Assembly (NCBI GenBank): GCA_046726415.1 | Contig: JBKPAK010000193.1 | Location: 1 to 55,286, forward strand | Length of the DNA: 55,286 nucleotides | Source of the DNA: Candidatus Methylomirabilota bacterium | GTDB lineage: Bacteria; Methylomirabilota; Methylomirabilia; Rokubacteriales; CSP1-6 | Reading direction: 5' to 3' | In this document: positions 1 through 44,866 of the stretch, one piece after another | Position numbering within the stretch: the first letter of the stretch is position 1 | Layout: the number at the start of each line of letters is the position of its first letter | Notes under the pieces: model-generated | What the model was told of the DNA's origin: nothing | The model's input: only the letters and a program-made list of their open reading frames with translations | The model's database searches: none | Position numbers and translations under genes: made by a program

Positions 1-1
1 A

Positions 2-583
2 CTCGTCACGGACTGGTCACCGCAGCATCGGGCCCACTGGATCTCCGAGCAGGTGCTGCACTGGTCCGGCATCCCGACCGTCAACGTGCGGGCGACCATC
101 TTCGTCGAGAACCCCATCCTGACCTGGCTGGCGCTGGGCCCACTGAGCAAGGGTGAGCTCCGCCTGCCTTTCGGCCTCCAGCGGCTTTCGCCGGTCGCCG
201 GTTACGACGTGGCGGAGCTGTGCGTGAGAATCCTCGTCGACCTGGCGCCGCACATCTCGAAGTCCTACGAGCTCACCGGTCCGGAACTGAAGGACATGCA
301 CGGGTTCGCGGAGGATTACGGGGCCGCGCTGGGACGCCAGGTCTCCTACATCCCTGAGGAAGTGGACGCCTGGAACGAGACCTTCGTGGACAGGGCCCTG
401 GCCGAGAATCCGCATGTGGCGGAGCACCTGAAGACCCTGACCAGGCTGGTCGCCGGCGGGCGGTACGACGTCGTCACCGACCAACTGGAAAACCTGCTCG
501 GGCGCCGGCCGAAGACTGTGCGGTGGGCGCTGGAGAACAATCCGCGCATCCGGAAAGTGGCGGGGAAAGTGGCGGCTGCCTGA
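2..583 (+). CDS. NmrA-like/NAD(P)H-binding protein, 5'-partial
   Basis: Frame open from nt 2 (LVTDWSPQHRAHWISEQVLHWSGIP..VRATIF..SPVAGYDVA..YELTGP..LLGRRP); typical C-terminal half of atypical SDR/NmrA proteins. Confidence 0.7.
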   Translation, partial: LVTDWSPQHRAHWISEQVLHWSGIPTVNVRATIFVENPILTWLALGPLSKGELRLPFGLQRLSPVAGYDVAELCVRILVDLAPHISKSYELTGPELKDMHGFAEDYGAALGRQVSYIPEEVDAWNETFVDRALAENPHVAEHLKTLTRLVAGGRYDVVTDQLENLLGRRPKTVRWALENNPRIRKVAGKVAAA

Positions 584-701
584 ACCGTTGAGCGGTCCAG
601 AGCAGATTCCCTGGACGGCTCTCCGAGGCTGCTCTTGGCCTTTGGCAAATGTTTCCCACCGTGAACCTAGACGTGGGTGAGCAAGAGACACCGGCTGACG
701 C

Positions 702-929
702 GTGGGAGGAATCGCTTTATGCTTCCTGTGCTTCGTCGTCTGCCCGCCCGGGGCGCTCGACGACACCACAGTGCGGAGCCTGCTGCGCGGAGTCCTTGCC
801 GGCTACAAGATCCCCAAGCGCGTTCACTTCGTGGACGCACTCCCCCGCGATCCGTTTCAGGGCAAGGTCCGCCGGACCGAACTGCGCTGCATAGCGGAAG
901 AGTTGGGACGTTCCTCGGCCGGCCGTTAA
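702..929 (+). pseudogene. C-terminal remnant of AMP-binding (acyl-CoA synthetase) enzyme
   Basis: LAGYKIPKRVHFVDALPR..GKVRRTELR matches the AMP-binding C-terminal domain; no N-terminal part. Confidence 0.6.
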
Positions 930-943
930 CTGTGAACGGGGCT

Positions 944-963
944 CTTGCGTTGACTTGCGTTGA
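944..963 (+). repeat. Tandem 10-bp direct repeat CTTGCGTTGA x2, probable integrase arm site of an upstream island
   Basis: Perfect tandem repeat about 150 bp before the first att core. Confidence 0.45.
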
Positions 964-1115
964 ACGCTCGGAAAATCGCGATGACTTCGCGTCCGCTCAT
1001 GTCGTGAGAGTGCGTCTATGTCGCGGGCGATCGCGGTGCGAACGTTCAGGCGGATCGCGCGGTTACGCGCAAGTGCGCGAAAAACGAGGAGGGCCGGCTC
1101 ATCACCGGCCCTCGT

Positions 1116-1160
1116 CTCTTAATCAGCGGGTCCAAGGTTCGAGTCCTTGACGGCCCACCA
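1116..1160 (+). repeat. att core 1: 3' part of tRNA-Lys(CTT) (anticodon loop to CCA)
   Basis: CTCTTAATCAGCGGGTCCAAGGTTCGAGTCCTTGACGGCCCACCA; T-loop GTTCGAG, CCA end, no 5' half; identical at 9511 and 54367. Confidence 0.9.
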
Positions 1161-1167
1161 ACACCGA

Positions 1168-1197
1168 CGGGCACTTCCAGAACACCGGAAGTGCCCG
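1168..1197 (+). terminator. Hairpin after att core 1
   Basis: CGGGCACTTCC-loop-GGAAGTGCCCG followed by T-rich tract. Confidence 0.7.
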
Positions 1198-1479
1198 CTG
1201 ATTTTCTATCAGCGGGTTTAGGGTCGGCGAGCCGCAAAATCCAGGGAATCGGCATCGACGGATCGACAGCGGGGCAAACGATTTGACCCGCATTGCCCCA
1301 TCGCAGAAACACCGCTTCGATAATCGTCCGCGAACACGCACGCAGCTCGCCGGCTCGCGTCGATGCCGGGATTCCCGGCATTTCTCCGCCAGAAGTATCG
1401 GGTCGGTGAAGAGACCCCTTGACGGTCGTCGACCTCGATGGAGCCGTGCTGATCGGCCGGCCTGCTGTCGCGCACGGGC

Positions 1480-1666
1480 GCCAGCTACGCGATCCTGATC
1501 CTCCGTGAACGGGCGCGCGAACTCGCCGCGGCGAAGGATGGCCGATCCTCGCTGATCGGCGCAGGAGCGCGCCTCCTCGTCACGCACAACCATCAGACAC
1601 TTCGGTTCGGGACAGGGAGTGCGTGTGGTGCGTCCGCGAACGCTGATCGACGAAGTCCGCGCGTGA
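1480..1666 (+). pseudogene. PIN-domain toxin remnant
   Basis: Broken frames give LRDPD..LLVTHN/IRHFGSGQGVRVVRPRTLIDEVRA*, resembling a PIN toxin C-terminus. Confidence 0.4.
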
Positions 1667-1798
1667 ATGGATCGTTCGGAACATGAGCTCCGCGGGTCCA
1701 AGAGCGGACTATTCGGCGTGTCGAGCCCCACGGTGGCCCGGATTCCCTAGGATGCCTTAGACCGGCGGGTGCCGGTGCATAATACCGGGAGACGCTGA

Positions 1799-1855
1799 GA
1801 GGCGATGGGGTTCGCCTGAACCGCCCCGCACCGTGCGGAGCTGATGACCCCTACC
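1799..1855 (+). ncRNA. Fluoride riboswitch (crcB motif)
   Basis: GGCGATGGGGTTCGCC-TGAACCGC...GCTGATGACCCCTAC; P1 GGCGA/TCGCC, pseudoknot GGGGT/ACCCC; operon contains crcB. Confidence 0.93.
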
Positions 1856-1879
1856 GGACGCCGGTAGGGGTTCTTTTTT
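1847..1879 (+). terminator. Intrinsic terminator, riboswitch expression platform
   Basis: ACCCCTACCGG-ACG-CCGGTAGGGGT then TCTTTTTT; 5' arm overlaps the aptamer pseudoknot strand. Confidence 0.9.
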
Positions 1880-1909
1880 ATGGCCTGTTGCCAGGCAGGA
1901 GGACACGCC

Positions 1910-2113
1910 ATGGCGGAGCAGGAACGGAAACCCGCCAAGCGAGACGCTTCCAAGACCGACGCGCCGCCGCCCACCACGACGAAGTCGGCGGTCGCCGAGA
2001 AGGGCGAGAAGCTCAAGAAGACGATCGACGAGGTGATCGACGAGATCGACGACGTGCTCGAAGAGAACGCCGACGAGTTCGTGAAGGGCTATGTCCAGCG
2101 AGGCGGAGAGTGA
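1910..2113 (+). CDS. pup: Prokaryotic ubiquitin-like protein Pup (67 aa)
   Basis: RBS AGGAGG; IDEVIDEIDDVLEENADEFVKGYVQRGGE C-terminus is the Pup signature. Confidence 0.85.
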   Translation: MAEQERKPAKRDASKTDAPPPTTTKSAVAEKGEKLKKTIDEVIDEIDDVLEENADEFVKGYVQRGGE

Positions 2114-2883
2114 GCCGGAGCATCGGCGACACGAAGCTTCTGGATGCGTGCCAGCAACCAGGCTGCCCGGTCTGCCGACGTGTCGACGAAGAAAGCCGTC
2201 ACCACGTCGACGGGCTCTTGCATGAGCTCGCGAACGATTTGGAGACACGCTCCGCGCTCCGTCGTTCCTGGGGGTTCTGCAACTGGCACGGCTGGATGAC
2301 GCTCGCGGCCCCGGGCGCGCGCACTGGCGTCGCGATCATGTACGCCGATGTGCTGCGCAGCGTCTCGGGCCGTGTCCGACGAACGAGTCGTAGCGCCGCT
2401 GGCAAGGCGAGCGGCAACTGGCGCCATCGCGTCGCGGCGGTGTTCCTCCCCGACGGGTCGACGACCGAGCCGGCGGATGGCGGACGAGCCGCGTGCCTCG
2501 TCTGCCAAAGCGTGACGCGCGGTGAGAGCCGCTACCTTCGCACTCTTTGTCTCGTCGGTGTGGACGACGCGGTGACTCGAGCCTATGACGCATCCGACGG
2601 GCTCTGCCTCCGCCATCTGCAGCTTGCCATGGAGCGAGGCCGCATCGCGTCGTCTCTCGTGGCGCACACGCTTCGCAAGTGGGATGAACTCGCCGGCCTG
2701 CTCGACGACTTCGTCAAGAAGCACGAGTACCGGAACGCGATCCCCTTTACCGAGGCCGAGGCTCGCGCCTGCGACCGCGCCGTCGAGACGTTGTCCGGCG
2801 GACGAGGCGTCTGGGCGAACGACCTCCACGGCGACGCCCACCCGCGCCGGCGGCCGGGAACCACCTGCGTTCGGAGAGCGTGA
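2110..2883 (+). CDS. DUF6062-like Cys/His-rich protein
   Basis: GTG overlaps pup stop; duplicated CPVC..GFCNWH and CLVC..LCLRH motifs. Confidence 0.65.
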   Translation: MSRSIGDTKLLDACQQPGCPVCRRVDEESRHHVDGLLHELANDLETRSALRRSWGFCNWHGWMTLAAPGARTGVAIMYADVLRSVSGRVRRTSRSAAGKASGNWRHRVAAVFLPDGSTTEPADGGRAACLVCQSVTRGESRYLRTLCLVGVDDAVTRAYDASDGLCLRHLQLAMERGRIASSLVAHTLRKWDELAGLLDDFVKKHEYRNAIPFTEAEARACDRAVETLSGGRGVWANDLHGDAHPRRRPGTTCVRRA

Positions 2884-4097
2884 TGGAAAACGTCTGGTTC
2901 GTGGCCGCCGTGTGGGTCGGGCTCGCGCTCGTCGCGACGCTCTTCGCGATCTGGTTCAGGATCTCCACGGCGCTCTCCGAGATCGTCGTCGGCGTCGTCG
3001 CGCAGCTCGTCATCGGTGCGATCGTCGGCCCCCACGCGCTCGGCTCGTCGAGCGCGTGGGTGACCTTCCTTGCCGGTACCGGCGCGATTGTCCTCACGTT
3101 CCTCGCGGGTGCCGAGCTCGATCCGTCCGTCTTTCGCGTGAAGTGGAAGGAAGCGGCCATCGTCGGCCTGATCAGCTTCGGCGCGCCGTTCTTCGGCGCC
3201 GCCGCCGCCGCGCGCTACCTCCTCGGATGGACGCCGAGCGCCAGCTGGCTCGCCGGGGTCGCGCTCTCGACGACGTCCGTGGCCGTCGTCTACGCCGTGA
3301 TGCTCGAGCTGGGGTTCAACACGACCGAGTATGGGAAATCGATCCTCGCCGCCTGCTTCGTGACCGACCTCGGCACGGTCATCGCGCTGGGCCTGATCTT
3401 CGCCCCCTTCACGGCCCGAACGCTGGTCTTCGTCGTCGTATGTGCCGGGCTGTTCGCCGTGCTCCCGCGCGTGACGTCGCGCTTCTTTCAACGCTACGGA
3501 GGCCGCGTCTCCGAGCTGGAAACGAAGTTCATCCTGCTTGCGCTGTTCGGCACCGGCGGCCTGGCCGTCTGGGCGCAGAGTGAGCCGGTGCTTCCGGCCT
3601 ATGTCATCGGCATGCTGCTCGCGGGAACCGTCGGCCGTGACCACCAGCTCATCCGCCGGCTTCGCACGGTCACGTTCGGGCTCCTGACCCCGTTCTACTT
3701 CATCCGGGCCGGCTCCTTCGTGTCGGTCCCCGCGCTCGTGGCCGCTCCGATGGTGCTCGTGGTCCTCTTCTCCGCCAAGATGGTGAGCAAGATGCTCGGC
3801 GTATTTCCCGCGGTGAAGGCGTTCCGCTATGGCCAGCAGGAGGGCCTGTACTACACGTTGATGATGTCCACCGGGTTGACCTTTGGCACCATCTCGGCGC
3901 TGTTCGGTCTGAGCCACGGCATCGTCGATGCGGCGCAGTACTCGCACCTGGTCGCGGCGGTCATCGGCAGCGCGGTGATCCCCACGTTGATCGCCAACGC
4001 GTTCTTCATGCCGCACCACCTGCGCCCCGAGCCGACCCCGCCGCTTGCGGCCGCCGCCACGGCCGCGGCCGTCGAGGGAGGAAGTGGCCGTGTATAA
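2880..4097 (+). CDS. Cation:proton antiporter (CPA2/Na_H_Exchanger)
   Basis: About 12 TM helices, FLAGAELD, LSTTSVAV, FVTDLG motifs. Confidence 0.88.
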   Translation: MMENVWFVAAVWVGLALVATLFAIWFRISTALSEIVVGVVAQLVIGAIVGPHALGSSSAWVTFLAGTGAIVLTFLAGAELDPSVFRVKWKEAAIVGLISFGAPFFGAAAAARYLLGWTPSASWLAGVALSTTSVAVVYAVMLELGFNTTEYGKSILAACFVTDLGTVIALGLIFAPFTARTLVFVVVCAGLFAVLPRVTSRFFQRYGGRVSELETKFILLALFGTGGLAVWAQSEPVLPAYVIGMLLAGTVGRDHQLIRRLRTVTFGLLTPFYFIRAGSFVSVPALVAAPMVLVVLFSAKMVSKMLGVFPAVKAFRYGQQEGLYYTLMMSTGLTFGTISALFGLSHGIVDAAQYSHLVAAVIGSAVIPTLIANAFFMPHHLRPEPTPPLAAAATAAAVEGGSGRV

Positions 4098-4470
4098 ACG
4101 CATTCTCGTCGCCTACGACGGCTCCGAGGGTGCCCGCGCCGCCCTGCGCCATGGCGTGGAGCTCGCGAAGGCGCTGGGCGCCGAGCTGTCGAGCGTCTCG
4201 GTCGAGGAACACCTGCCGCACTATGCCGCCTCGATCAGCGAAGTGAAGGGCGCCAAGGAAGAAATCGACGCGTACTTTCACCGGCTCGCGAAGGAGGCGC
4301 GCGATTACGCCGCGATGCAGGGCGTGGATCTGGACGTCCTGATCCGCCAGGGCCACGAGGTCGAGGAGATCGTCAAGGTCGCCCGCGACGGCGCGTTCGA
4401 GCGCTTCATGGGAAGCACCGCCCAGAGCATCGTCCGGCTCGCTCCGTGCTCGGTGCTCCTGGCGAAGTAG
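4090..4470 (+). CDS. Universal stress protein (apparently internally shortened)
   Basis: YKRILVAYDGS..MGSTAQSIVRLAPCSVLL; the usual DLLVxG segment is missing. Confidence 0.8.
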   Translation: MYKRILVAYDGSEGARAALRHGVELAKALGAELSSVSVEEHLPHYAASISEVKGAKEEIDAYFHRLAKEARDYAAMQGVDLDVLIRQGHEVEEIVKVARDGAFERFMGSTAQSIVRLAPCSVLLAK

Positions 4471-4522
4471 CGAGGCATCCTTTGCGATCGGCAACGGCCG
4501 TTGAAAGGAGGATCCCACTCCG

Positions 4523-4912
4523 GTGGAACGATTACTGTTCGTCGCTGTCGGCGGCGCGATCGGTTCGGCGGCGCGTTACCTCGTGTCGATCCTCGCCGCC
4601 GTCTGGTTTGGCAGCGAGTTCCCGTACGGCACCCTCATCGTGAACCTCGTCGGCGCCTTCATCATCGGGCTGGTGCAGGAGCTCGGGACGGAAGCGTTGC
4701 TGCTCCCCGACAACATCCGCCTGTTCATCACGACGGGGATGATGGGAGGCCTGACGACGTACTCGACGTTCAGTTATGAGACCGTGCGGCTGATGGAGGC
4801 CAATGCCTGGCCCCAAGCCTGGGTCAACGTCATCGTCACGACCGTCATCTGCCTGACGTTGTGTTTTTTCGGCATCGCGGTGGGCCGTCTCCTCTTGACG
4901 CTGCGGGGGTAA
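4523..4912 (+). CDS. crcB: Fluoride channel CrcB/Fluc
   Basis: GGAIGSAARY, FPYGTLIVN, TGMMGGLTTYSTFSYE. Confidence 0.95.
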   Translation: MERLLFVAVGGAIGSAARYLVSILAAVWFGSEFPYGTLIVNLVGAFIIGLVQELGTEALLLPDNIRLFITTGMMGGLTTYSTFSYETVRLMEANAWPQAWVNVIVTTVICLTLCFFGIAVGRLLLTLRG

Positions 4913-4917
4913 GGGCC

Positions 4918-5259
4918 ATGCGGAAGATCGAGGGCGAGCAGGTGCTGATGCGGATCTTCATCGGTCAGACGGATCAATGGCACCACAGACCGCTCTACAT
5001 GGCGCTGGTCGAGCTGTTCCGCTCGAAGCACCTCGCCGGCGCGACGGTACTCCAGGGCGTCGCGGGCTTCGGCGCCGGCTCCATCCTGCATGAAGCCAAG
5101 CTCTTCCGGCTGTCCCAGGACCTGCCCGTCGTCATCGAGGTCGTCGATACCGAAGCGCACATCCAGGCCGTCCTGCCCGAGGTCGACCGCATGATGCAGG
5201 GCGGGCTGATCACGCTCGAGAAAGTGCAGGTCGTCAAGTACGACCGCGGAGACTCGTGA
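4918..5259 (+). CDS. DUF190 (PII-like) protein
   Basis: LMRIFIG..GATVLQGVAGFG..SQDLPVVIEVVD; typical crcB neighbour. Confidence 0.88.
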   Translation: MRKIEGEQVLMRIFIGQTDQWHHRPLYMALVELFRSKHLAGATVLQGVAGFGAGSILHEAKLFRLSQDLPVVIEVVDTEAHIQAVLPEVDRMMQGGLITLEKVQVVKYDRGDS

Positions 5260-6974
5260 GCGACACCGCATCACCGCTTCGCCTCATCGGTCGGCTGGCG
5301 GGCGAGATCGGCGAGCCGGCCCTTGTCGGCGAGGCTGACGCGCTCGCCGGCCGCGTGGCGGAGGGACGCTTCTATGCCGTCTGCCTCGGCCAGTTCAAGC
5401 GCGGCAAGTCGTCGCTCCTGAACGCGCTCGTCGGGTATCCCGTGCTTCCGGCCGGGATCGTCCCGGTGACCAATGTCGTCACGGTGCTCCGGCACGGCGA
5501 TCGCCTCGCGGCTCGCGTCCGACACGCGGATGGGCACTGGCAGGAGTGCGAGGTCGCTGCGGTCTCCAGCTACGTCTCGGAGGAGCAGAACCCGCAGAAC
5601 GAGAAGGCGGTGGACCTGGTCGAAATCTTCGTCCCGAGCTCCTTGCTGCAGCACGGCCTCTGCCTGGTCGACACGCCGGGCGTCGGCTCGGTATGGACGA
5701 TCAACACCGCCGCCACGCGACAGTTCATTCCGCATGTCGACGCAGCCCTCGTGGTCCTCGGCGTCGATCCTCCGCTGTCCGGCGACGAGCTCGCGCTCCT
5801 GCGGGACGTCGCGGCCCAGGTCGACGACATCGTCGTGCTCCTCAACAAGGCCGACCTGCATAGCGCGAGCGAGCGCGCCGAAGGCGCACGCTTTGCCGAG
5901 CGCATCGCGAGCGACGCGCTCGGACGCCCACTCGGTCGCATCTTCGAAGTGAGCGCCAGGGAGCGCATCGCCGGTACCGGTCCGCCGAGGGACTGGGACG
6001 CGCTGGAGGAGCGCCTCGTCACCATGGCCCGGAAGTCCGGATCGGACCTCATTCGGCGGGCCGAGACGCGTGGGACGCGCTTGATCGGCGATCGCCTGCT
6101 CGCGCGGGTCGAGGAACGCGAAGCGGCGCTTCGACGCCCACTCGAGGAGTCGGAGGCGCGCAGCGCGCGCCTGGCCCGCGCGATCGCGAAGGCCGAGCGG
6201 TTCCTCGACGACCTCGCGCACCGGCTCCTTGCCGTCGAGCAGCGCGTGGCGCACGACCTGGAGCGCGAGGCGGATGAGTTCCTCCGGAACAACCTGAGCG
6301 CAGCGCTGGCCGGGTTCGACGCGGCGCTGGACTCGGCGGCAGTCGGCTCAGGCGGTCTTCGCGCGTGGGCCGTGATGACTGCCGGGAAGATCGCCGAGCG
6401 TCGTCTCGAGCATTGGCGACGCGAAGCGGAGCCGCTCGTGGCTGAACGGCTCCGGAACGGGATCGCCCGGTTGGTCACGACGGTCAACGACGTCCAGGCG
6501 GACATGGCACGGTTCGAGCCGGCCTTGCGCCTTCCGTCGCTCGGGGACGAGGTCTTCCTCCATATCCGGAGTCGGCTCTACTACACCCAGATGCTCTGGA
6601 TCGCGCCGGAATCCGTCGCGCGTTCGTGGCTCGAACGCCTGGTTCCGCGAAGGATCCGCCTCGCGTCCGTCAGGCGCGATGGCCAGCGCTATCTTGCTCG
6701 CCTCATCGAAGTGAATGCGTCGCGGATCAAGAACGACTTCCGGCAACGGCTCGTCGAGAGCCGCGCGCTCCTGGAGAGAGAGCTACGATCGCGCCTGCGG
6801 GAAGTCGCGGAAGGCGCGGGCCGCGCCGTGGCGCACGCGCGTGACGTGCACGCGAGAGGGATGGCGGTGGTCGAGGCCGAGCAGCGGCGCCTAGCGAGCA
6901 TCCGTCAGGAGCTCGAACAGGAGCTCGAACGAGTCCTCGCGAGTCAGCCCGGCGGCGCCTCCGGAGACCGCTGA
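5256..6974 (+). CDS. Dynamin-like GTPase
   Basis: G1 GQFKRGKSS, G3 LVDTPG, G4 NKAD, helical C-terminus. Confidence 0.85.
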   Translation: MSDTASPLRLIGRLAGEIGEPALVGEADALAGRVAEGRFYAVCLGQFKRGKSSLLNALVGYPVLPAGIVPVTNVVTVLRHGDRLAARVRHADGHWQECEVAAVSSYVSEEQNPQNEKAVDLVEIFVPSSLLQHGLCLVDTPGVGSVWTINTAATRQFIPHVDAALVVLGVDPPLSGDELALLRDVAAQVDDIVVLLNKADLHSASERAEGARFAERIASDALGRPLGRIFEVSARERIAGTGPPRDWDALEERLVTMARKSGSDLIRRAETRGTRLIGDRLLARVEEREAALRRPLEESEARSARLARAIAKAERFLDDLAHRLLAVEQRVAHDLEREADEFLRNNLSAALAGFDAALDSAAVGSGGLRAWAVMTAGKIAERRLEHWRREAEPLVAERLRNGIARLVTTVNDVQADMARFEPALRLPSLGDEVFLHIRSRLYYTQMLWIAPESVARSWLERLVPRRIRLASVRRDGQRYLARLIEVNASRIKNDFRQRLVESRALLERELRSRLREVAEGAGRAVAHARDVHARGMAVVEAEQRRLASIRQELEQELERVLASQPGGASGDR

Positions 6975-7315
6975 TCGTTCTCGCCCTGAGCGTAACGGAT
7001 CACGTGGGCACGCTCCGTCATCATCACGCCGCCTTCCATCAGGACCTCGAGCTTGGGCACGACCCGGGCGATGTGCTCGGCGGTGTCGACGACCTCGATG
7101 ACGATCGGCAAGCCCTGCGCGGCGACCTCGATGTCGATCGTGTGCACGTGGCGGTCGTGCCCGAAGCCGGCCATGCCCTTTAGGACGGTCGTTCCCGCCA
7201 TTCCCTCGGCGCGCAGCACCTCGACGATCTTCCGAAAGAGCGGCTTACGGTCATGCGTCCGCGATTCGCTGAGGATCATCCGCAGGAGGACTTGGTCGCC
7301 TTCGATTCTCCGCAT
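6944..7315 (-). CDS. DUF190 protein (second paralogue)
   Basis: MRRIEGDQVLLRM..GTTVLKGMAGFG..LPIVIEVVD. Confidence 0.85.
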   Translation of the reverse strand: MRRIEGDQVLLRMILSESRTHDRKPLFRKIVEVLRAEGMAGTTVLKGMAGFGHDRHVHTIDIEVAAQGLPIVIEVVDTAEHIARVVPKLEVLMEGGVMMTERAHVIRYAQGENDQRSPEAPPG

Positions 7316-7317
7316 CG

Positions 7318-7698
7318 TCAGCTCTCCCAGTATTTCGCCTTGTCCGGAATGATCCAGCGGATTCCGCCCCGCGGCTCGTCCACGTCGCCCGCGTAACGAG
7401 GAATGAGGTGCAGGTGGGCGTGGCCGACCGTCTGCCCGGCCGCCTCACCGACATTCACGCCGAGGTTATAACCCTGCGGTCGATGCTGCCGCTCCAGGAT
7501 CGCGCGGACCTGGGCGACGAGACGCCAGATCGCGGCGAGCTCGTCGGCGCTGAGGGCGAGGAAGTCCGGCTCGTGTCGGCGCGGGACGACGAGGGCGTGT
7601 CCCGGCGTGAGAGGAGAGGTGTCGGCGAAGGCGACCGCGGTCGCGTCCTCCGCCAGTGCCTCCCCGGCGCGGATCTTGTCGCAGAAGATGCACTCCAT
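7318..7698 (-). CDS. HIT family hydrolase
   Basis: CIFC, PGHALVVPRRH, GQTVGHAHLHLIPR. Confidence 0.92.
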   Translation of the reverse strand: MECIFCDKIRAGEALAEDATAVAFADTSPLTPGHALVVPRRHEPDFLALSADELAAIWRLVAQVRAILERQHRPQGYNLGVNVGEAAGQTVGHAHLHLIPRYAGDVDEPRGGIRWIIPDKAKYWES

Positions 7699-7727
7699 CG
7701 CGCTCACAGGGTAACAGTCGGGCTTCC

Positions 7728-8198
7728 TCAGCGTCGGAGCGTGGCGATCAACCGCTTCGGGTGCAAAAGGAGTTGCAGCGCAGTCACGATGCTGGGACAC
7801 ACGATGCTTCCGGACACGATCGTGTCGGCCGCGGCCCCTTCACCGCCGACCACGGCGATCCCCAGCGACGCGGCCCGGAGCATCGCCCGATCATTGCGGC
7901 CGTTCCCGACGCAGACCGTGGCATCCGCGCCGAGGCGTCGCACGTACGCCGCCTTCCCGAGATCCTGTCGGGTCGCCGGCAAGACGCTCACCGTTGCCGG
8001 CACGCCGCGCAGTTCCGCCGTCGCCGTCCCGAACGTGTCCGCCGTCAGGACGTGGATCTCGAGCCTCCGGTGGAGTCGTCTCAGCGCGCCGGCCACGCCG
8101 GCGAGAAGGCGCCCATCCAGCGCAAGCGTGCCGTTGTAATCGAGGACGAGGTAGCGCAGGCGGAGGCGCTTGTACCCCGGGATGTCGATCGCGATCAT
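7728..8198 (-). CDS. HAD-family soluble P-type-ATPase-like hydrolase
   Basis: LDYNGTLA, LTADTFG, GNGRNDRAML. Confidence 0.85.
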   Translation of the reverse strand: MIAIDIPGYKRLRLRYLVLDYNGTLALDGRLLAGVAGALRRLHRRLEIHVLTADTFGTATAELRGVPATVSVLPATRQDLGKAAYVRRLGADATVCVGNGRNDRAMLRAASLGIAVVGGEGAAADTIVSGSIVCPSIVTALQLLLHPKRLIATLRR

Positions 8199-9154
8199 CG
8201 ACGTCGATCGGCCTCGAGCGTCAACGCGGCGGCTCGTCCCGGGGGGAACAGCTCGGTCGTGATGTAGCGCTCTCCCGTGTCCGCCAGGAGCACGACGATG
8301 ACCTTGCCGGTGGCGTCGGACCGCGCCGCCCCCGAGAGGGCGGCATGAAGCGCGGCCCCTGACGACGCGCCGGCGACGACCCCTTCCTCCCGCGCGAGCC
8401 GTTGCGCACACGCGAACGCGTCCTCATCGCTCACCGCGATCACCTCGTCGATGATCGATCGATTCAGGACCGCCGGCACGAAGCCGACGCCGATGCCCGG
8501 GATCCGGTGATTGCCCGCCGGCTTGCCGGAAAGCACGGCCGCACCCGCGGGCTCGACGGCCACGACCCGAACACTCGGCTTCCGGGCTTTGAGGACCTCG
8601 CCGACCCCGGTGATGGTCCCGCCGGTGCCCACGGCCGACACGAACACATCGACCGTTCCTTCCGTATCGTCCCAGATCTCGAGGGCAGTGGTGCGCCGAT
8701 GGATCTCCGCGTTCGCGGGGTTGCTGAACTGATCCAGCATGATGGCGCCAGGAAGTTCATCGACGAGCTCCTTGGCGCGAGCAACGGCGTCGATCATGAG
8801 GATGCCGGGTGTCAGAATCACTTCGGCGCCCAGTCGCCGGAGCAGCGCAACCCTCTCGGTCGACATCGTCTCCGGCATCGTGAGGACGAGTCGGTAGCCG
8901 CGGATCGCCGCGGCGAGGGCGAGTCCGACGCCGGTATTGCCACCGGTCGGCTCGACAAGCGTCAGTCCAGGCCGGAGACGCCCCTGCCGTTCAGCGTCTT
9001 CGATGAGCGCGACGCCCACCCTGTCTTTGACGCTGCCGCACGGGTTTCGCATCTCGAGCTTGGCGAGCACCCGCCCGGGCAAACCCTTCGCGGCACGACC
9101 CAGTTCGATCATCGGCGTCCGACCGACAGTGGCGGTGACATCGCGATAGATCAC
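8195..9154 (-). CDS. cysK: Cysteine synthase A
   Basis: NPCGSVKDR PLP lysine, GTGGTITG, IPGIGVGFVP. Confidence 0.92.
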   Translation of the reverse strand: MIYRDVTATVGRTPMIELGRAAKGLPGRVLAKLEMRNPCGSVKDRVGVALIEDAERQGRLRPGLTLVEPTGGNTGVGLALAAAIRGYRLVLTMPETMSTERVALLRRLGAEVILTPGILMIDAVARAKELVDELPGAIMLDQFSNPANAEIHRRTTALEIWDDTEGTVDVFVSAVGTGGTITGVGEVLKARKPSVRVVAVEPAGAAVLSGKPAGNHRIPGIGVGFVPAVLNRSIIDEVIAVSDEDAFACAQRLAREEGVVAGASSGAALHAALSGAARSDATGKVIVVLLADTGERYITTELFPPGRAAALTLEADRRR

Positions 9155-9410
9155 CTGTCGCCCCTTCAGCCCCTGTCAGGGTACGATCCCCTGCCGCAGG
9201 CGCGGCGTGTGAGCTTCTATCCGACGGATGGCGCAGTCGGTCGTCAGCGGCGCGGGAGCCACTGCCCGTGGCGCGCCGTCCAGGACGTCGGGATGGAAAG
9301 CCTCAACACGCCGGGGACCTCTAGCATGACGGGGAGCGCCATCCCGGCGCATGGACTCATGGAGCGGACAGGGACCCGGCAGCGGGTCAAAAAATGGGGC
9401 AAAACCACGA

Positions 9411-10790
9411 TCAAGCTACGCCCAGAATCACCAGAGCCGACCCGTCAAGAACGCGCATCATTGCTGCGGATTCTCGCCGATGTTGTCCGATGCTGCCCTG
9501 CCCGAAGTGACTCTTAATCAGCGGGTCCAAGGTTCGAGTCCTTGACGGCCCACCAATCGAATCGGGCACTTCGGGATCCCCGGAGTGCCCGATTTGGCCT
9601 TTCAGGGCGGTTTGGTTCCAAATCTGGTTCCAAATCCCACCGGAGACCGCCCCGGCCGCCGACGTCACCGCGTCGGTGACCCGGTCTAGCAGATCCACCC
9701 ACCGGCGCCCACGGCTCGGGATCCAGCGAGCGTAATAGCGCAGCGTCGTCGCCGGATTGGCGTGCCCGAGTTGGGCGCTCACGTACGTGATCGGCGCGCC
9801 CGCGGCCAGGAGCAGGCTCGCGAAGGTGTGCCGCAGGTCGTAAAGGCGGAACGCCGGCAGCTTCGCCCTTGTCACCGCTCGCTTGAAGGCCTTCCGGACT
9901 CGCCACTCATCGTGCGGGTTGCCCTCGTCGTTTGGGAAGAGCCACGTGGGCTCGCCCCAGCCGCGGCGGAGCGCCTCCTCCTTTAGCCAGCGTAGGTGGC
10001 GCTCGAGGGCTTGAATGACCTCAGGCGTCAGGTCCACCGTCCGCTCCTCATAGGTCTTCGTCGGTTTCTCGCGGCCGAGGTTCCAGGCTCGCTCCACGCG
10101 AAGGGTGCGCCCCCTCCAGTCAACATCGCCGGGTCTCAGCGCAAAGGCCTCGCTCGGGCGCAGTCCTGCCTTGACGAGCAGGACGAACAGCGCCCAGTAC
10201 TGGCGCTCGCTTGCGGCGGCGGCGAGGAAGGCGTCGCGTTGCTCCCACGTCATCGGGCGGATCTTTTGCAGGCGCTCGGCCGAAGTCAGCTTGTCGGCGC
10301 GAGTCACCTTGCGGCGGCCGATCTGGAACGCCGGATTCGCGATGAGGACTCCGTCGTCGACGGCATCGGAGAGCATCGCCGAGAGGGACGCCTTCATCAG
10401 CCGGACCGAGTTCTTAGCATAGCCGCGGCCGCGCTTGTCAGCGAGGAAGGCCTTGATGTGGCCGCGGTGGACCTCGCGCACCTTGAGATGGCCCAGGGCG
10501 GGCAGGACGTGCCCCTCGAGCCGCTCCCTGTAGCTCCGGGCCGTGTTCGGATCCTTCTCGTGCTCGATGGTGGCGAGCCAGTGCATCGCGTACGCCCGGA
10601 GCGTGATGTCGCGATCCTCGACGGGCCCCGGCAACACGCCCTGCGATCGTAGAACCGCCGTCGCGTGCTCGTGAGCAGCATCCTCGGTCGGGAAAAGAGG
10701 CCGCCGGCGCTTCCCCTCGGCGTCGTGGTAGTCCACCTCCCAGAGCTCCCGATCGTGTCGGAAGCGGATCCTGAGGCGGGGCTTGGTCAC
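9411..10790 (-). CDS. int: Tyrosine recombinase/phage-type integrase
   Basis: GLRPSEAFAL, KT, YDLRHTFAS, LGHANPATTLRYY catalytic motifs. Confidence 0.93.
   Translation of the reverse strand: MTKPRLRIRFRHDRELWEVDYHDAEGKRRRPLFPTEDAAHEHATAVLRSQGVLPGPVEDRDITLRAYAMHWLATIEHEKDPNTARSYRERLEGHVLPALGHLKVREVHRGHIKAFLADKRGRGYAKNSVRLMKASLSAMLSDAVDDGVLIANPAFQIGRRKVTRADKLTSAERLQKIRPMTWEQRDAFLAAAASERQYWALFVLLVKAGLRPSEAFALRPGDVDWRGRTLRVERAWNLGREKPTKTYEERTVDLTPEVIQALERHLRWLKEEALRRGWGEPTWLFPNDEGNPHDEWRVRKAFKRAVTRAKLPAFRLYDLRHTFASLLLAAGAPITYVSAQLGHANPATTLRYYARWIPSRGRRWVDLLDRVTDAVTSAAGAVSGGIWNQIWNQTALKGQIGHSGDPEVPDSIGGPSRTRTLDPLIKSHFGQGSIGQHRRESAAMMRVLDGSALVILGVA
9511..9555 (+). repeat. att core 2: tRNA-Lys(CTT) 3' fragment
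   Basis: Identical 45-mer; lies inside the integrase 3' end. Confidence 0.9.
9560..9594 (+). terminator. Hairpin after att core 2
   Basis: AATCGGGCACT..AGTGCCCGATT. Confidence 0.7.
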
Positions 10791-11431
10791 GAGCTGACAG
10801 GACCAGCGCCCGTGGCCGCTGGCGATGCTGCAGTGGCTTCGAGGCTCCTGCTCGGTTTCATTTCTCGAATGTTGTCCATCGCCACGGTCGCGACCTGGCG
10901 CGCGCTTCGATCATTGCGAGCCTCCGTGCGCCGCGAGTCCGGCCGTTCGCGGCGGCGGACCACGAGGGAACGACTCACGGGCTTTGGGCCGAGGACCTTC
11001 GCAGAGCGCACGGCCCGCGAACCTGTCGTGTTCGCCGATGGTAAGGGGTGGGGCGCGTCGGGGTCAACGCGGTGGCGGGAGCGTCCCAACCACTCGCGAA
11101 GGCCGGTGACCGGGATTATCCAGTACTTCCCCTCCTTGGTGGCCGGGATACGACCTGATCGGCACAGCTCGTGGACGTAGGCCTCCTTTAGGTTGACCAA
11201 CTCGGCGACCTGGAGTGGCGTCAGGTGTCGAAGCTCGCCGACGGAATCGGCAGTTGGGCGGGGAACAGGACCACCACCCGCGGCGTCCGCCGCGCGTGCC
11301 CAGGCAAGCGCCTTCAGCCGCTCCAATGTGCCGAGAAGAGCCGGAAGGGAGTCTGGAGCGGCGCTCGCGACAGCTTGCTCGAATGCTGCGACGATTTCGC
11401 CCAGGTGACTGTCGGGGAGCAGCCGGCCCAT
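10787..11431 (-). CDS. Excisionase-like HTH protein
   Basis: LTPLQVAELVNLKEAYVHELCRSGRIPATKEGKYWII; coupled to int. Confidence 0.7.
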   Translation of the reverse strand: MGRLLPDSHLGEIVAAFEQAVASAAPDSLPALLGTLERLKALAWARAADAAGGGPVPRPTADSVGELRHLTPLQVAELVNLKEAYVHELCRSGRIPATKEGKYWIIPVTGLREWLGRSRHRVDPDAPHPLPSANTTGSRAVRSAKVLGPKPVSRSLVVRRRERPDSRRTEARNDRSARQVATVAMDNIREMKPSRSLEATAASPAATGAGPVSS

Positions 11432-11965
11432 CGAAACTCTCTCCTCACCATGGGCCCCCAGCCTTTGGGGGGACTGGCTTGCAGGGCACCAGATCACGTG
11501 AGGCAAGTCGATTGCCATCCGTGAGGGCATCGCACCAGGTTGGCCGACCGATCGGCAAAACTGCGTTCCAGATCACGATTCGCTTCAGATGGGACCCGAA
11601 TTCTATCCTCGCAGACTAATCCGCAGCCCCGACCGTGGGGCAACACACAACTCGCCTGCTGCGATTTGCCACTGTTCCGAGCCGATGATGAGTGTGTGAG
11701 AGACCTCGCCCCGGAGGGTGCCTGGCCGGCGCCAGTGAGAACCACGAGCGGCACGCTTCGCCCACCGCTCGTCCACGCGCGCCGTGCGCGCGGGATCTAT
11801 CTCGACGAATACCCCGCGAATCGCCGGCGTTGGCGCAGCGTTTCCGCGTACTGCACCGCACCGACGACCCCGCGGTGCAGGTCGCCCACGAGGACGAGTA
11901 CGGTGTGCTGGAACTCTGGCGTTCCCAGCCCCTCGGCCCCCGTCCACCCGCCTGACAGTTCACAT

Positions 11966-13120
11966 TTAGCGGCTCCGCGCGGTCCCGTACAGGAGCTTCA
12001 GCCAGGGTGGCGCCGCGAACGTCGTGAGCATCACCACGACGACGACGACGGCGTACAGGTCCTCGGCGATGACGCTCGCGGCGAGCCCGGCGCCGGCGAA
12101 GATCAGGCCGACCTCCCCGCGGGGCACCATGCCCACGCCCACGGGCCATCGGCGCACCCCCGTTTGGTAGACGGCGAGCCCCGCCACCAGCTTCGTCGCG
12201 ATGGCGACGACCGTCAGGACCATCGCCATCCCGAACTGCGCGTTCGGCGCAAACGGGCTCAGCATCGCGGGCTGGACCTTCATGCCGACGGTGACGAAGA
12301 ACACGGGGACCAGCAGGTCCGCCACCGGCTTGATGCGCGCCTCGATGTGCTCGCGTCGCTCGGTCGTCGCCAGCACCAGCCCGGCCGCGAACGCGCCGAT
12401 GATCGTCGCCAGTCCGATCAGGTCGGCGACGGCGGCCAGCGCTACCGCGAAGATCATCGAGTACACGATGAGCGTGCCCCGCGCGTGCAGCTGGCCGATC
12501 CAGCCGATCAGCACGGGGGCCAGCCGGACCCCTGCCCAGATCGCCACCAGCAGGAACACGACCGCCTTGGCCGACATCAGGCCGACGGTGGCGAGTGACA
12601 CGCTGCCGGACCGCGCGATCCCGGTCACCACGGCCAGGATGATGAGGCCGAGGATGTCGTCGACGACGGCCGCGCCGAGCACGACCTTGGCGGCGGGGTC
12701 CTGGAGCCGGCCGAGGTCGGCGAGCACACGCGCCGTAATGCCCACGCTCGTCGCGGTCAGCGTGGCGCCGATGAACACGGCGACGAGGGGCGAGAACCCG
12801 AGCCAGGCCATCACCGCGAAGCCGGCGGCGAACGGGACCACGACGCCGACGACGGCGACGAGCGTCGCCTGCAGCCCCGCCCGCAGCAGCTCGTGGAGGT
12901 TGGACTCTAGTCCGACCTCGAACAACAGAATGAGGACACCGAGCTCGGCCAGGGCGTAGAGCACGGCGGACTCGTGGACGAGACCGAGCACCCCGGGGCC
13001 GATCACGACACCCGCCAGCAGCTCGCCGAGCACGGCCGTCTGGCCGATCCGCTCCATGCCCTCGCCCGCGAGCTTGGCGGCGAGCCAGACGAGCACGAGG
13101 CCGATCAGCAGCTCATCCAT
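11966..13120 (-). CDS. Cation:proton antiporter (CPA2)
   Basis: LFEVGLES, ATSVGIT, AVVDDILG, MVPRGEVGLI. Confidence 0.9.
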   Translation of the reverse strand: MDELLIGLVLVWLAAKLAGEGMERIGQTAVLGELLAGVVIGPGVLGLVHESAVLYALAELGVLILLFEVGLESNLHELLRAGLQATLVAVVGVVVPFAAGFAVMAWLGFSPLVAVFIGATLTATSVGITARVLADLGRLQDPAAKVVLGAAVVDDILGLIILAVVTGIARSGSVSLATVGLMSAKAVVFLLVAIWAGVRLAPVLIGWIGQLHARGTLIVYSMIFAVALAAVADLIGLATIIGAFAAGLVLATTERREHIEARIKPVADLLVPVFFVTVGMKVQPAMLSPFAPNAQFGMAMVLTVVAIATKLVAGLAVYQTGVRRWPVGVGMVPRGEVGLIFAGAGLAASVIAEDLYAVVVVVVMLTTFAAPPWLKLLYGTARSR

Positions 13121-44060: not shown

Positions 44061-44866
44061 GCCGTGCCTCCTGGCGCCGGCGCCAGGTCGGCGTACCGGC
44101 AGCGGAAGATGCAGCGTTGCGAGGTGTCGTGGTGGAGCTTGGCGCAGAAGACGCCGGCGAGATCGTGCCGGCGGACGTACAGCTCGGCCGCCATCAGCAT
44201 GCCCAGCGACGGGGCCGTGAAGTAAATCCACAGCGTGGCCCAGGTCCCCGCCGGCAGCGCGGAGGCCAGGCTCCGCGCCGGGTTCATGCTCATGCCAGAC
44301 AGCGGGGCCTCCACCGTGATGTAGACCGCCACCAGCGCGCCAGCGCAGAGGCCGGTCAGCGGCGCCAGCCGTGGCGAGTTCGACAGGCGCAGCACCACGC
44401 TCATGAGGACGAATGTGATGGCGAGCTCGGCCGCAAACGCGCCCACCGGACCGAAAGCGCCGGGCAGCGTGGCCACGTAGAAGACGTCGGGATCGGCCAG
44501 AGGTGGACCGAGCAGGGCGGCCGCCAGGGCGACGCCGGCAATGCCGCCGGCCGCCTGGGCGACCCCGTACAGCGCCGCGTCGGCCGACGGTACCTTGCCG
44601 AGTCGCCAGAACGTCAAGGTCGTGGCCGGGTTGAAGTGGGCGCCCGCGCGCCGGCCCCATGGCGAGTAAATGAGGCCCATCGCCGTCAGCCCCATGACCA
44701 GGCCCATCAGCGCCCGCCGCGCCAGCGTGTCCGGCACCGCGAGCACCACCGGCGAGGCCGGGTGTCCTAGCAGCGTGCCGAACATGCAGGCGACGAGCAT
44801 GAACAGCCCCAGCCCGGCGGCCTCGATGAGGTATTCCGGCCAGTGACCGCGAAGCGTCGCAGACAT
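44057..44866 (-). CDS. MIP/aquaporin
   Basis: HFNPATT and SMNPARS. Confidence 0.9.
   Translation of the reverse strand: MSATLRGHWPEYLIEAAGLGLFMLVACMFGTLLGHPASPVVLAVPDTLARRALMGLVMGLTAMGLIYSPWGRRAGAHFNPATTLTFWRLGKVPSADAALYGVAQAAGGIAGVALAAALLGPPLADPDVFYVATLPGAFGPVGAFAAELAITFVLMSVVLRLSNSPRLAPLTGLCAGALVAVYITVEAPLSGMSMNPARSLASALPAGTWATLWIYFTAPSLGMLMAAELYVRRHDLAGVFCAKLHHDTSQRCIFRCRYADLAPAPGGTA

Follow-up and report, generated by a model that had tools for sequence, protein, structure and literature searches.

A maintained second pup gene heads a predicted fluoride-riboswitch operon in a bacterium of the Rokubacteria group

Why should a gene for the ubiquitin-like protein Pup lie directly behind a fluoride riboswitch? 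The question is raised by a contig of an uncultivated soil bacterium of the Rokubacteria group (Candidatus Rokuibacteriota/Methylomirabilota), of which a stretch of 55,286 nucleotides, hereafter the window, was analyzed. A preliminary description of this DNA had reported a canonical fluoride aptamer with an overlapping terminator and, 30 nucleotides (nt) past the terminator, a 67-aa Pup open reading frame (ORF) as the first gene of an operon that holds crcB. All of these elements were recovered, and seven genes on the same strand were found to follow the leader. The features are as follows.

1792-1860, plus strand: fluoride riboswitch aptamer (crcB motif, RF01734); Rfam 50.3 bits, gathering score 34, E 5e-11
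1846-1879, plus strand: intrinsic terminator (expression platform); stem 1846-1872 with 12 pairs, 8 of them G-C, then CTTTTTT
1897-1902, plus strand: ribosome-binding site AGGAGG, read from the sequence, 7 nt before the pup ATG at 1910
1910-2113, plus strand: pup, riboswitch-linked paralog; 67 aa, PF05639 75.8 bits, TIGR03687 57 bits
2110-2883, plus strand: DUF6062 protein, 257 aa; PF19538 56.6 bits (cut-off 27), GTG start overlapping the pup stop (GTGA)
2880-4097, plus strand: CPA2-type cation/proton antiporter, 405 aa; PF00999 115.4 bits, start overlapping the DUF6062 stop (GTGA)
4091-4470, plus strand: universal stress protein (usp); PF00582 70.9 bits
4523-4912, plus strand: crcB (Fluc) fluoride exporter; PF02537 99.2 bits, TIGR00494 107.2 bits (cut-off 80.45)
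4919-5259, plus strand: DUF190 protein; PF02641 133 bits
5256-6974, plus strand: dynamin-like GTPase, 572 aa; PF00350 86.5 bits, start overlapping the DUF190 stop (GTGA)

The match to RF01734 covers model positions 1-64 of 64, that is, the full length of the family, and its score lies 16 bits over the gathering score, so that the covariance-model check proposed in the preliminary description came out positive; no other Rfam family was matched in the 55 kb window. The terminator hairpin has a folding energy of -23.8 kcal/mol (z -3.2), and its 5′ arm is the 3′ tail of the aptamer. Because this tail belongs to both structures, the leader, as far as it can be read from sequence, is a predicted transcription-terminating fluoride ON switch. 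The same expression platform, in which the terminator stem shares the aptamer 3′ tail, is common to all eight riboswitch-pup leaders that were found (8/8). At the pseudoknot of the P1 loop with the 3′ tail, the window carries GGGGT/ACCCC where seven relatives carry GGAGT/ACTCC; this compensatory change is found in the window's leader only and, being a single event, gives modest support to the structure. A transcriptional design is also described for the crcB riboswitch of Bacillus cereus in passages of PMC11077080 and PMC8752731. Compared with those passages, the aptamer family (RF01734), the competition for the 3′ tail between pseudoknot and terminator stem with T-run, and the presence of crcB in the regulated operon are alike, whereas the first regulated gene of the window is pup rather than the exporter, and crcB is the fifth cistron.

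The product of the 67-aa ORF exceeded the cut-offs of both curated Pup models (27 bits for PF05639 and 41.45 bits for TIGR03687), and in Pfam the Pup family alone was matched at E up to 0.01; the proposed check with Pup models therefore confirmed the earlier identification. The 30-nt gap separates the last T of the run (1879) from the ATG at 1910. An in-frame ATG also occurs at 1880, directly after the T-run; it has no ribosome-binding site, and Pup in the relatives starts with MAEQ or MADQ. The C-terminus of the switched Pup is ...EENADEFVKGYVQRGGE, ending in YVQRGGE. Since the protein ends in GGE, it would require no deamidation, and to this extent the earlier account holds. The same end was equally usual in the housekeeping copies (26/33, versus 7/8 of the switched copies); GGE was consequently rejected as a special trait of the switched copy, and readiness without Dop does not distinguish it. 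Residues 27-67 align to the Pup chains of the solved structures 3M9D, 3M91, 7PX9, 7OY3 and 4BJR, in which the partner is Mpa (3M9D, 3M91), Dop (7OY3) or PafA (4BJR). By this alignment, the switched Pup is predicted to keep the segments that are seen bound to Mpa, PafA and Dop.

The operon contains, in order, pup, DUF6062, the CPA2 antiporter, usp, crcB, DUF190 and the dynamin-like GTPase, and its junctions are three 4-nt GTGA start/stop overlaps and otherwise short gaps. Two starts were placed inside the longest ORF: usp likely begins at GTG 4091 (VYKRILVAYDG; longest ORF from 4045) and DUF190 likely at ATG 4919 (longest ORF from 4861). The antiporter scored 106 bits with TIGR00932, under the cut-off of that model. 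The GTPase gene is the last of the cluster, and the next long ORFs lie on the opposite strand; a simple scan found no terminator 3′ of it, and no tRNA was found in window positions 1-12000. The G+C content of the operon is 0.63-0.70, versus 0.675 for the genome. In a sediment metatranscriptome, a 272-nt contig with 1 mismatch spans the pup/DUF6062 junction (2030-2301); a second contig of the same run, 155 nt long, lies in the antiporter gene (3600-3754) with 0 mismatches. These contigs provide a hint that the pup, DUF6062 and antiporter genes are transcribed together, and the hint is weak because the contigs have neither strand nor level and DNA may be carried over into RNA libraries. The rest of the operon had no RNA contigs, to which we attach no meaning.

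We then considered the machinery that a second Pup would serve. In the canonical actinobacterial locus, such as that of Mycobacterium, the genes are arranged as mpa/arc-dop-pup-prcB-prcA...pafA. The host assembly comprises 7.6 Mb in 352 contigs and is 98% complete; the window lies on contig C193, on which no Pup-ligase or proteasome gene was matched, in agreement with the earlier statement that dop, pafA, mpa and prcAB are absent from the window. Another contig, C90, carries mpa-dop-prcB-prcA, and every product scored above the cut-off of its model (Mpa/ARC, TIGR03689, 748 bits; Dop, TIGR03688, 617.5 bits; PrcB, TIGR03690, 317.7 bits; PrcA, TIGR03691, 335.4 bits). There, dop runs to position 44269 and prcB begins at the next one, 44270; no pup separates the two genes. 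No second gene of the Pup-ligase family (PF03136) was found in the 98%-complete assembly. C90 stops about 220 nt past prcA, with codons for MKRRI, which probably represent the first five codons of pafA. A genus-mate, G002, has the same locus with 83% DNA identity along 5.8 kb, and its gene at the position of the C90 end starts MKRRIFGLENEYG and is PafA according to TIGR03686 (630.6 bits, cut-off 551.3). A single contig carries both Dop and PafA, at a distance of about 3.1 kb, in most of 40 relatives. The residues at the contig end, the PafA of the genus-mate and the spacing in the relatives together indicate that the pafA of the host is very probably truncated where the contig stops, rather than absent from the bacterium.

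The search for a further pup, which had been proposed together with that for the machinery, revealed a housekeeping copy on contig C223; it ends in GGE and is away from any pupylation gene, so that both copies of the host, the switched one on C193 and the housekeeping one on C223, are outside C90. The generalization that pup normally lies with dop and pafA did not hold in this order where it was checked, the housekeeping pup being apart from them in genome G000 and its genus-mate G002. The host system resembles the canonical Pup-proteasome system in the Pup family, in the GG[EQ] end, in the Mpa- and ligase-binding segments, which align to mycobacterial and corynebacterial Pup, and in the possession of Mpa, Dop, PrcB and PrcA and of a probable PafA truncated by the contig end. 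It differs in that no pup is located between dop and prcB, both copies being elsewhere, in that a fluoride riboswitch precedes one of the copies, which forms part of a separate clade, and in that the host phylum is Methylomirabilota and not Actinobacteria.

The recurrence of the arrangement was examined by cross-referencing the coordinates of Rfam and Pfam matches within the same genome sets. A riboswitch followed by Pup was present in 7/41 genomes when the host and its 40 nearest relatives were considered and in 8/151 of the whole order, which answers the proposed synteny survey: the arrangement is not unique. Its distribution is uneven, with 7/21 in a sister family (f4) and 1/127, the host genome only, in the window's own family (f1). 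In each positive genome, the riboswitch match lies about 50-130 nt 5′ of the Pup match on the same strand, and the switched pup is the first cistron in all 8 genomes, which represent 7 genera and two families. Seen from the RNA, 8 of the 53 riboswitch matches of the order have Pup just downstream and 45 do not. The counts include one genome flagged as unpublished (G011) throughout and another (G096) in one order-wide count, and no claim depends on either.

Outside the order, a riboswitch match was obtained in 10/45 genomes of the phylum, and none of these 10 has Pup on the same contig, so that the arrangement was found in none of the 45. Metagenome loci were searched with the clade alignment as a query, which gave at least 422 Pup relatives; in the best 80, of which 71 had at least 200 nt upstream, no fluoride aptamer was detected by a local nhmmer profile combined with a regular expression, a screen that could miss divergent aptamers. 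As a control, the profile recovered 11/11 aptamers, of which 7 had been used to build it and 4 were independent. As for the gene order of the relatives, tblastn revealed riboswitch-Pup-DUF6062-CPA2-Usp in 4/6 loci, with an MFS transporter next in at least one (L037), and one locus had the order Pup-dynamin-DUF6062-Usp. In those four loci, DUF6062 is longer (about 380 aa) and carries an extension that is absent from the window protein.

In a tree of 44 Pup sequences (66 columns), the 8 riboswitch-linked Pups and two further copies, L061 and L063, form one clade with support 100/100 and a branch of 0.64, and the other pup of the host is placed with the housekeeping pups from the host's family. 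No riboswitch was detected for L061 and L063, in the latter case within 1.7 kb upstream. The clade-specific residues are mainly N-terminal and central (QERK versus QKKK, VLEEN versus ILEEN and AEKG...LKK versus KKGKKIKED in the housekeeping copies), and the C-terminal 20 or so residues are nearly unchanged between clade and housekeeping Pups. Over the last 40 codons, dN/dS in 36 pairs had a median of 0.21 and a maximum of 0.64. Judged by these comparisons, the switched Pup lineage is under purifying selection, separate and maintained.

Within the clade, the Pup of the window nests among the f4 sequences (support 96/91), and over its first 14 kb the window lacks colinearity with two genus-mates. 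These two observations raised lateral transfer from f4. On the other side, the DUF6062 protein of the window is no closer to the Pup-linked versions of f4 (36-40% identity) than to the Pup-less versions of f1 (31-45%), and the G+C content matches that of the genome. The operon may have arrived by transfer, be a mosaic, or reflect old paralogy with losses.

To see with which genes the riboswitch is generally associated, the stretches downstream of 40 other riboswitches of the order (114 ORFs) were scanned for families; 10 of the loci gave none. The counts of loci were as follows.

Na_H_Exchanger: 14/40
DUF190: 7/40
DUF6062: 6/40
Usp: 6/40
CrcB: 4/40
Dynamin_N: 4/40

No Pup family match was annotated in these 40 loci. 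The counts for DUF6062 and dynamin indicate that both belong to the fluoride regulon of the order with or without Pup, and the Pup-bearing form looks like a DUF6062-led operon to the head of which a pup copy was added. In the loci of relatives, a second, convergent riboswitch leads a doubled DUF6062 and a dynamin gene, and CLC, MutS-like and enolase fragments are also found near the fluoride loci. The fluoride "super-regulon" of Baker et al. 2012, as summarized in the fluoride section of PMC7266159, includes K+ and Cl- transporters, DNA repair proteins, eriC and crcB. The present operon agrees with that summary in placing CrcB and a cation/proton antiporter under one switch, with Usp and DUF190 nearby, and differs in Pup, DUF6062 and the dynamin-like GTPases, which that section does not name. 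A literature search, outside which lay the gene lists and supplements of Baker et al. 2012, found no paper linking fluoride riboswitches to Pup or pupylation, and full-text searches for DUF6062, for fluoride riboswitch with dynamin, and for pupylation with Rokubacteria returned no papers.

The protein encoded by the DUF6062 gene next to pup was examined further. Its 28 homologs at E up to 1e-5 were all PF19538 and all unnamed, and across 32 sequences C19, C22, C57, H60, C129, C132 and C166 are invariant. The window protein has two CxxC...CxxH motifs, and the invariant residues suggest two Cys3His metal sites. The AF2 model is confident and all-helical (pLDDT 85.8, pTM 0.79); Foldseek found nothing in the PDB at E up to 0.001, and a search of a protein atlas returned DUF6062 clusters alone. 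The best VIA-align candidate, the MIF4G domain of UPF2 (Z 5.3, rmsd 5.6 over 102 residues), is within the noise for helical proteins, and so no fold was assigned. A complex prediction of Pup with DUF6062 (1-240) and 2 Zn gave 0.00 and 0.00 against a mark of 0.32; this prediction was uncontrolled and the Pup fold in it uncertain, and we draw no verdict from it. In six DUF6062 loci of Chloroflexota and other non-Rokubacterial genomes, the fluoride switch and Pup were absent within 4 kb.

The reading that we prefer is that of a riboswitch-gated, seven-gene fluoride-stress operon headed by a maintained second pup whose product feeds protein tagging, and as a whole we give it a probability of about 0.5. 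Its parts differ in strength. The anatomy, comprising the riboswitch, the terminator, the Pup identity, the operon, the recurrence, the clade, the purifying selection and the host machinery, is held with high confidence. The role, that is, induction by fluoride in vivo, use by PafA and an effect on protein turnover, has in our estimate somewhat less than an even chance. With fluoride bound, the 3′ tail of the aptamer would be held in the pseudoknot, so that the terminator could not form and the polymerase would read through. The additional GGE-ending Pup would then most likely serve to enlarge the free Pup pool for PafA, which may tag more proteins for the Mpa-20S proteasome or carry out regulatory pupylation, and the CrcB exporter and the antiporter would meanwhile remove F- and H+. 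The gene arrangement suggests that fluoride stress raises protein tagging for breakdown. Several points are a counterweight to this reading: the arrangement is rare (1/127 in the window's own family, none of the 45 genomes outside the order and none of the 80 metagenome loci), 45 of the 53 riboswitch matches of the order have no Pup just downstream, GGE is no more usual in switched than in housekeeping copies, and of the host pafA the assembly shows five codons.

Other explanations have to be weighed against it. We regard it as scarcely credible that the ORF is not Pup, being UBact or a chance ORF, or that the RNA is not a working fluoride switch; this was considered solely because pup sits outside the pupylation locus, and no support for it was found. 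UBact, a ubiquitin-like tag of some Gram-negative phyla, has a C-terminal R[TS]G[EQ] and its own family signature. It is likewise a small, disordered, C-terminally conjugated tag outside Actinobacteria. The protein encoded in the window, however, scores above the cut-offs of PF05639 and TIGR03687, matches Pup alone among Pfam families at E up to 0.01 and ends in RGGE, and the host has Mpa, 20S subunits, Dop and very probably PafA of the Pup type, all of which speaks against UBact. For the RNA, the margin over the gathering score and the compensatory change in the pseudoknot speak against a non-working switch.

It is also conceivable, though unlikely, that the switched Pup acts outside the proteasome pathway, with DUF6062 or the dynamin-like GTPase, for which it would be a specific disordered partner or tag; under fluoride stress it might, for instance, regulate them or bring them to the membrane. 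Such a partnership would fit the translational coupling of pup and DUF6062 through the GTGA overlap, the adjacency of the two genes in 4/6 loci of relatives, with a dynamin-like gene between them in a fifth, and the membership of both partner families in the fluoride regulon of the order (6/40 and 4/40), including the doubled DUF6062 and dynamin gene behind the convergent second riboswitch. The location of the clade-specific residues, N-terminal and central and outside the C-terminal ligase-binding part, would also fit. However, DUF6062 is led by a riboswitch without Pup in the same 6/40 loci, and near its Chloroflexota relatives no switch and no Pup occurs within 4 kb, indicating that DUF6062 does not need Pup; moreover, the last 20 residues, GG[EQ] among them, are conserved as they are in Pups that become conjugated, which is hard to explain without ligation. 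We consider it quite improbable that pup is a duplicate lodged between the riboswitch and a DUF6062-led transporter operon with no fluoride-specific role, in which case the switch would exist for the transporters and pup would merely be co-expressed. That Pup-less riboswitch-DUF6062 and riboswitch-antiporter operons are the usual form in the order, that the Pup-bearing form is patchy (8/151 genomes), and that L063, which belongs to the clade, lacks a riboswitch in the 1.7 kb upstream are all in its favor. A neutral duplicate of a 67-codon gene would nevertheless be expected to decay, whereas this copy is kept as the first cistron in 8 genomes of 7 genera and two families and belongs to a 100/100 clade on a long branch with a median dN/dS of 0.21.

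A more speculative reading, which we consider rather unlikely but not remote, is that Rokubacteria have evolved a stress-specific ubiquitin-like tag, a separate Pup lineage made only under fluoride. It could work in two ways. Pup might mark fluoride-poisoned Mg/phosphate enzymes for removal by the Mpa-proteasome; or, if metal-fluoride complexes block the phosphoryl-transfer of Dop, depupylation and hence the recycling of Pup would stall, and the switched Pup would replenish the pool. In either case, it may act alongside the zinc-motif DUF6062 protein and the dynamin-like membrane GTPase as fluoride-response proteins that have so far escaped recognition.

The regulon of a riboswitch is a direct read-out of what the cell needs as the ligand rises. 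If the preferred reading is true, targeted protein tagging and degradation would join the known defences against fluoride, namely export, pH control and enzyme replacement, and fluoride would be the first inducer of a Pup gene to be defined as a ligand. The locus would also make the trigger of pupylation outside Actinobacteria directly testable with a simple chemical, NaF. Finally, the operon draws attention to two uncharacterised proteins of the fluoride response, DUF6062 and the dynamin-like GTPase.

The host carries a housekeeping pup copy on a separate contig (C223) from the riboswitch-linked one.

G000:C223:10566-10766, housekeeping pup of the host genome, outside the proteasome locus

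Beginning a few nucleotides 3′ of this gene, a short ORF contains two CxxC pairs and may encode a zinc ribbon of the FmdB type, for which its N-terminus, MPIYEYRCRHC, would be typical. On a groundwater DNA contig, the end of a Pup gene runs on into sequence resembling this downstream ORF. In the window itself, the approximately 1.2 kb located 5′ of the fluoride riboswitch (584-1790) gave no Rfam match and no tRNA, and the ORF at 2-583 had no match in Pfam at E up to 0.01. A promoter scan covering 1500-5600 of the window detected none of the sigma-70-like type.

In several genomes of one genus of the sister family f4, a third gene of the Pup-ligase (Dop/PafA) family was observed apart from the dop-pafA locus, with scores of approximately 500-525 bits. 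In one of these (G029) it is located 6 kb from a divergent Pup-like ORF, which has no riboswitch.

Extra Pup-ligase-family genes and extra Pup-like ORF in f4
G029:C92:1944-3197, (+), third Pup-ligase-family gene
G029:C92:8910-9044, (-), divergent extra Pup-like ORF with GGE end
G032:C55, G034:C4, G036:C10 and G038:C18, similar extra Pup-ligase matches

Some of the Pup-bearing loci of relatives contain an additional fluoride riboswitch within a few kb, on the strand opposite to that of the Pup-linked riboswitch.

Second fluoride riboswitches in Pup-bearing loci
L037:9313-9396 (G035:C147), (-)
L041:1200-1268, (+)
L055:765-833, (+)

At L037 the Pup-linked and second riboswitches form a convergent pair, and the first gene behind the second one encodes a DUF6062 protein in doubled form, 476 aa long and with four CxxC motifs; a gene for a dynamin-like GTPase comes next.

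An arrangement of riboswitch and DUF6062 from which Pup is absent was found on another Methylomirabilota contig (L047), where DUF6062 comes after the riboswitch and approximately 1.2 kb of intervening sequence without assigned identity.

L047:412-481, fluoride riboswitch
L047:1743-2435, DUF6062

The genus-mate G002 has a solitary crcB with 73% DNA identity (L146; G002:C7:583223-583589), and no riboswitch match was found in the whole genome. The crcB protein match is divided between two frames, possibly due to a frameshift or an assembly error.

In a genome of the window's own family, f1, four fluoride riboswitch matches were observed within approximately 4.3 kb of a single contig (G041:C6:33047-37357). 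Three of the four were annotated: DUF6062 lies behind one and an antiporter behind another, and one has no recognisable family immediately 3′. This cluster is a dense "fluoride island".
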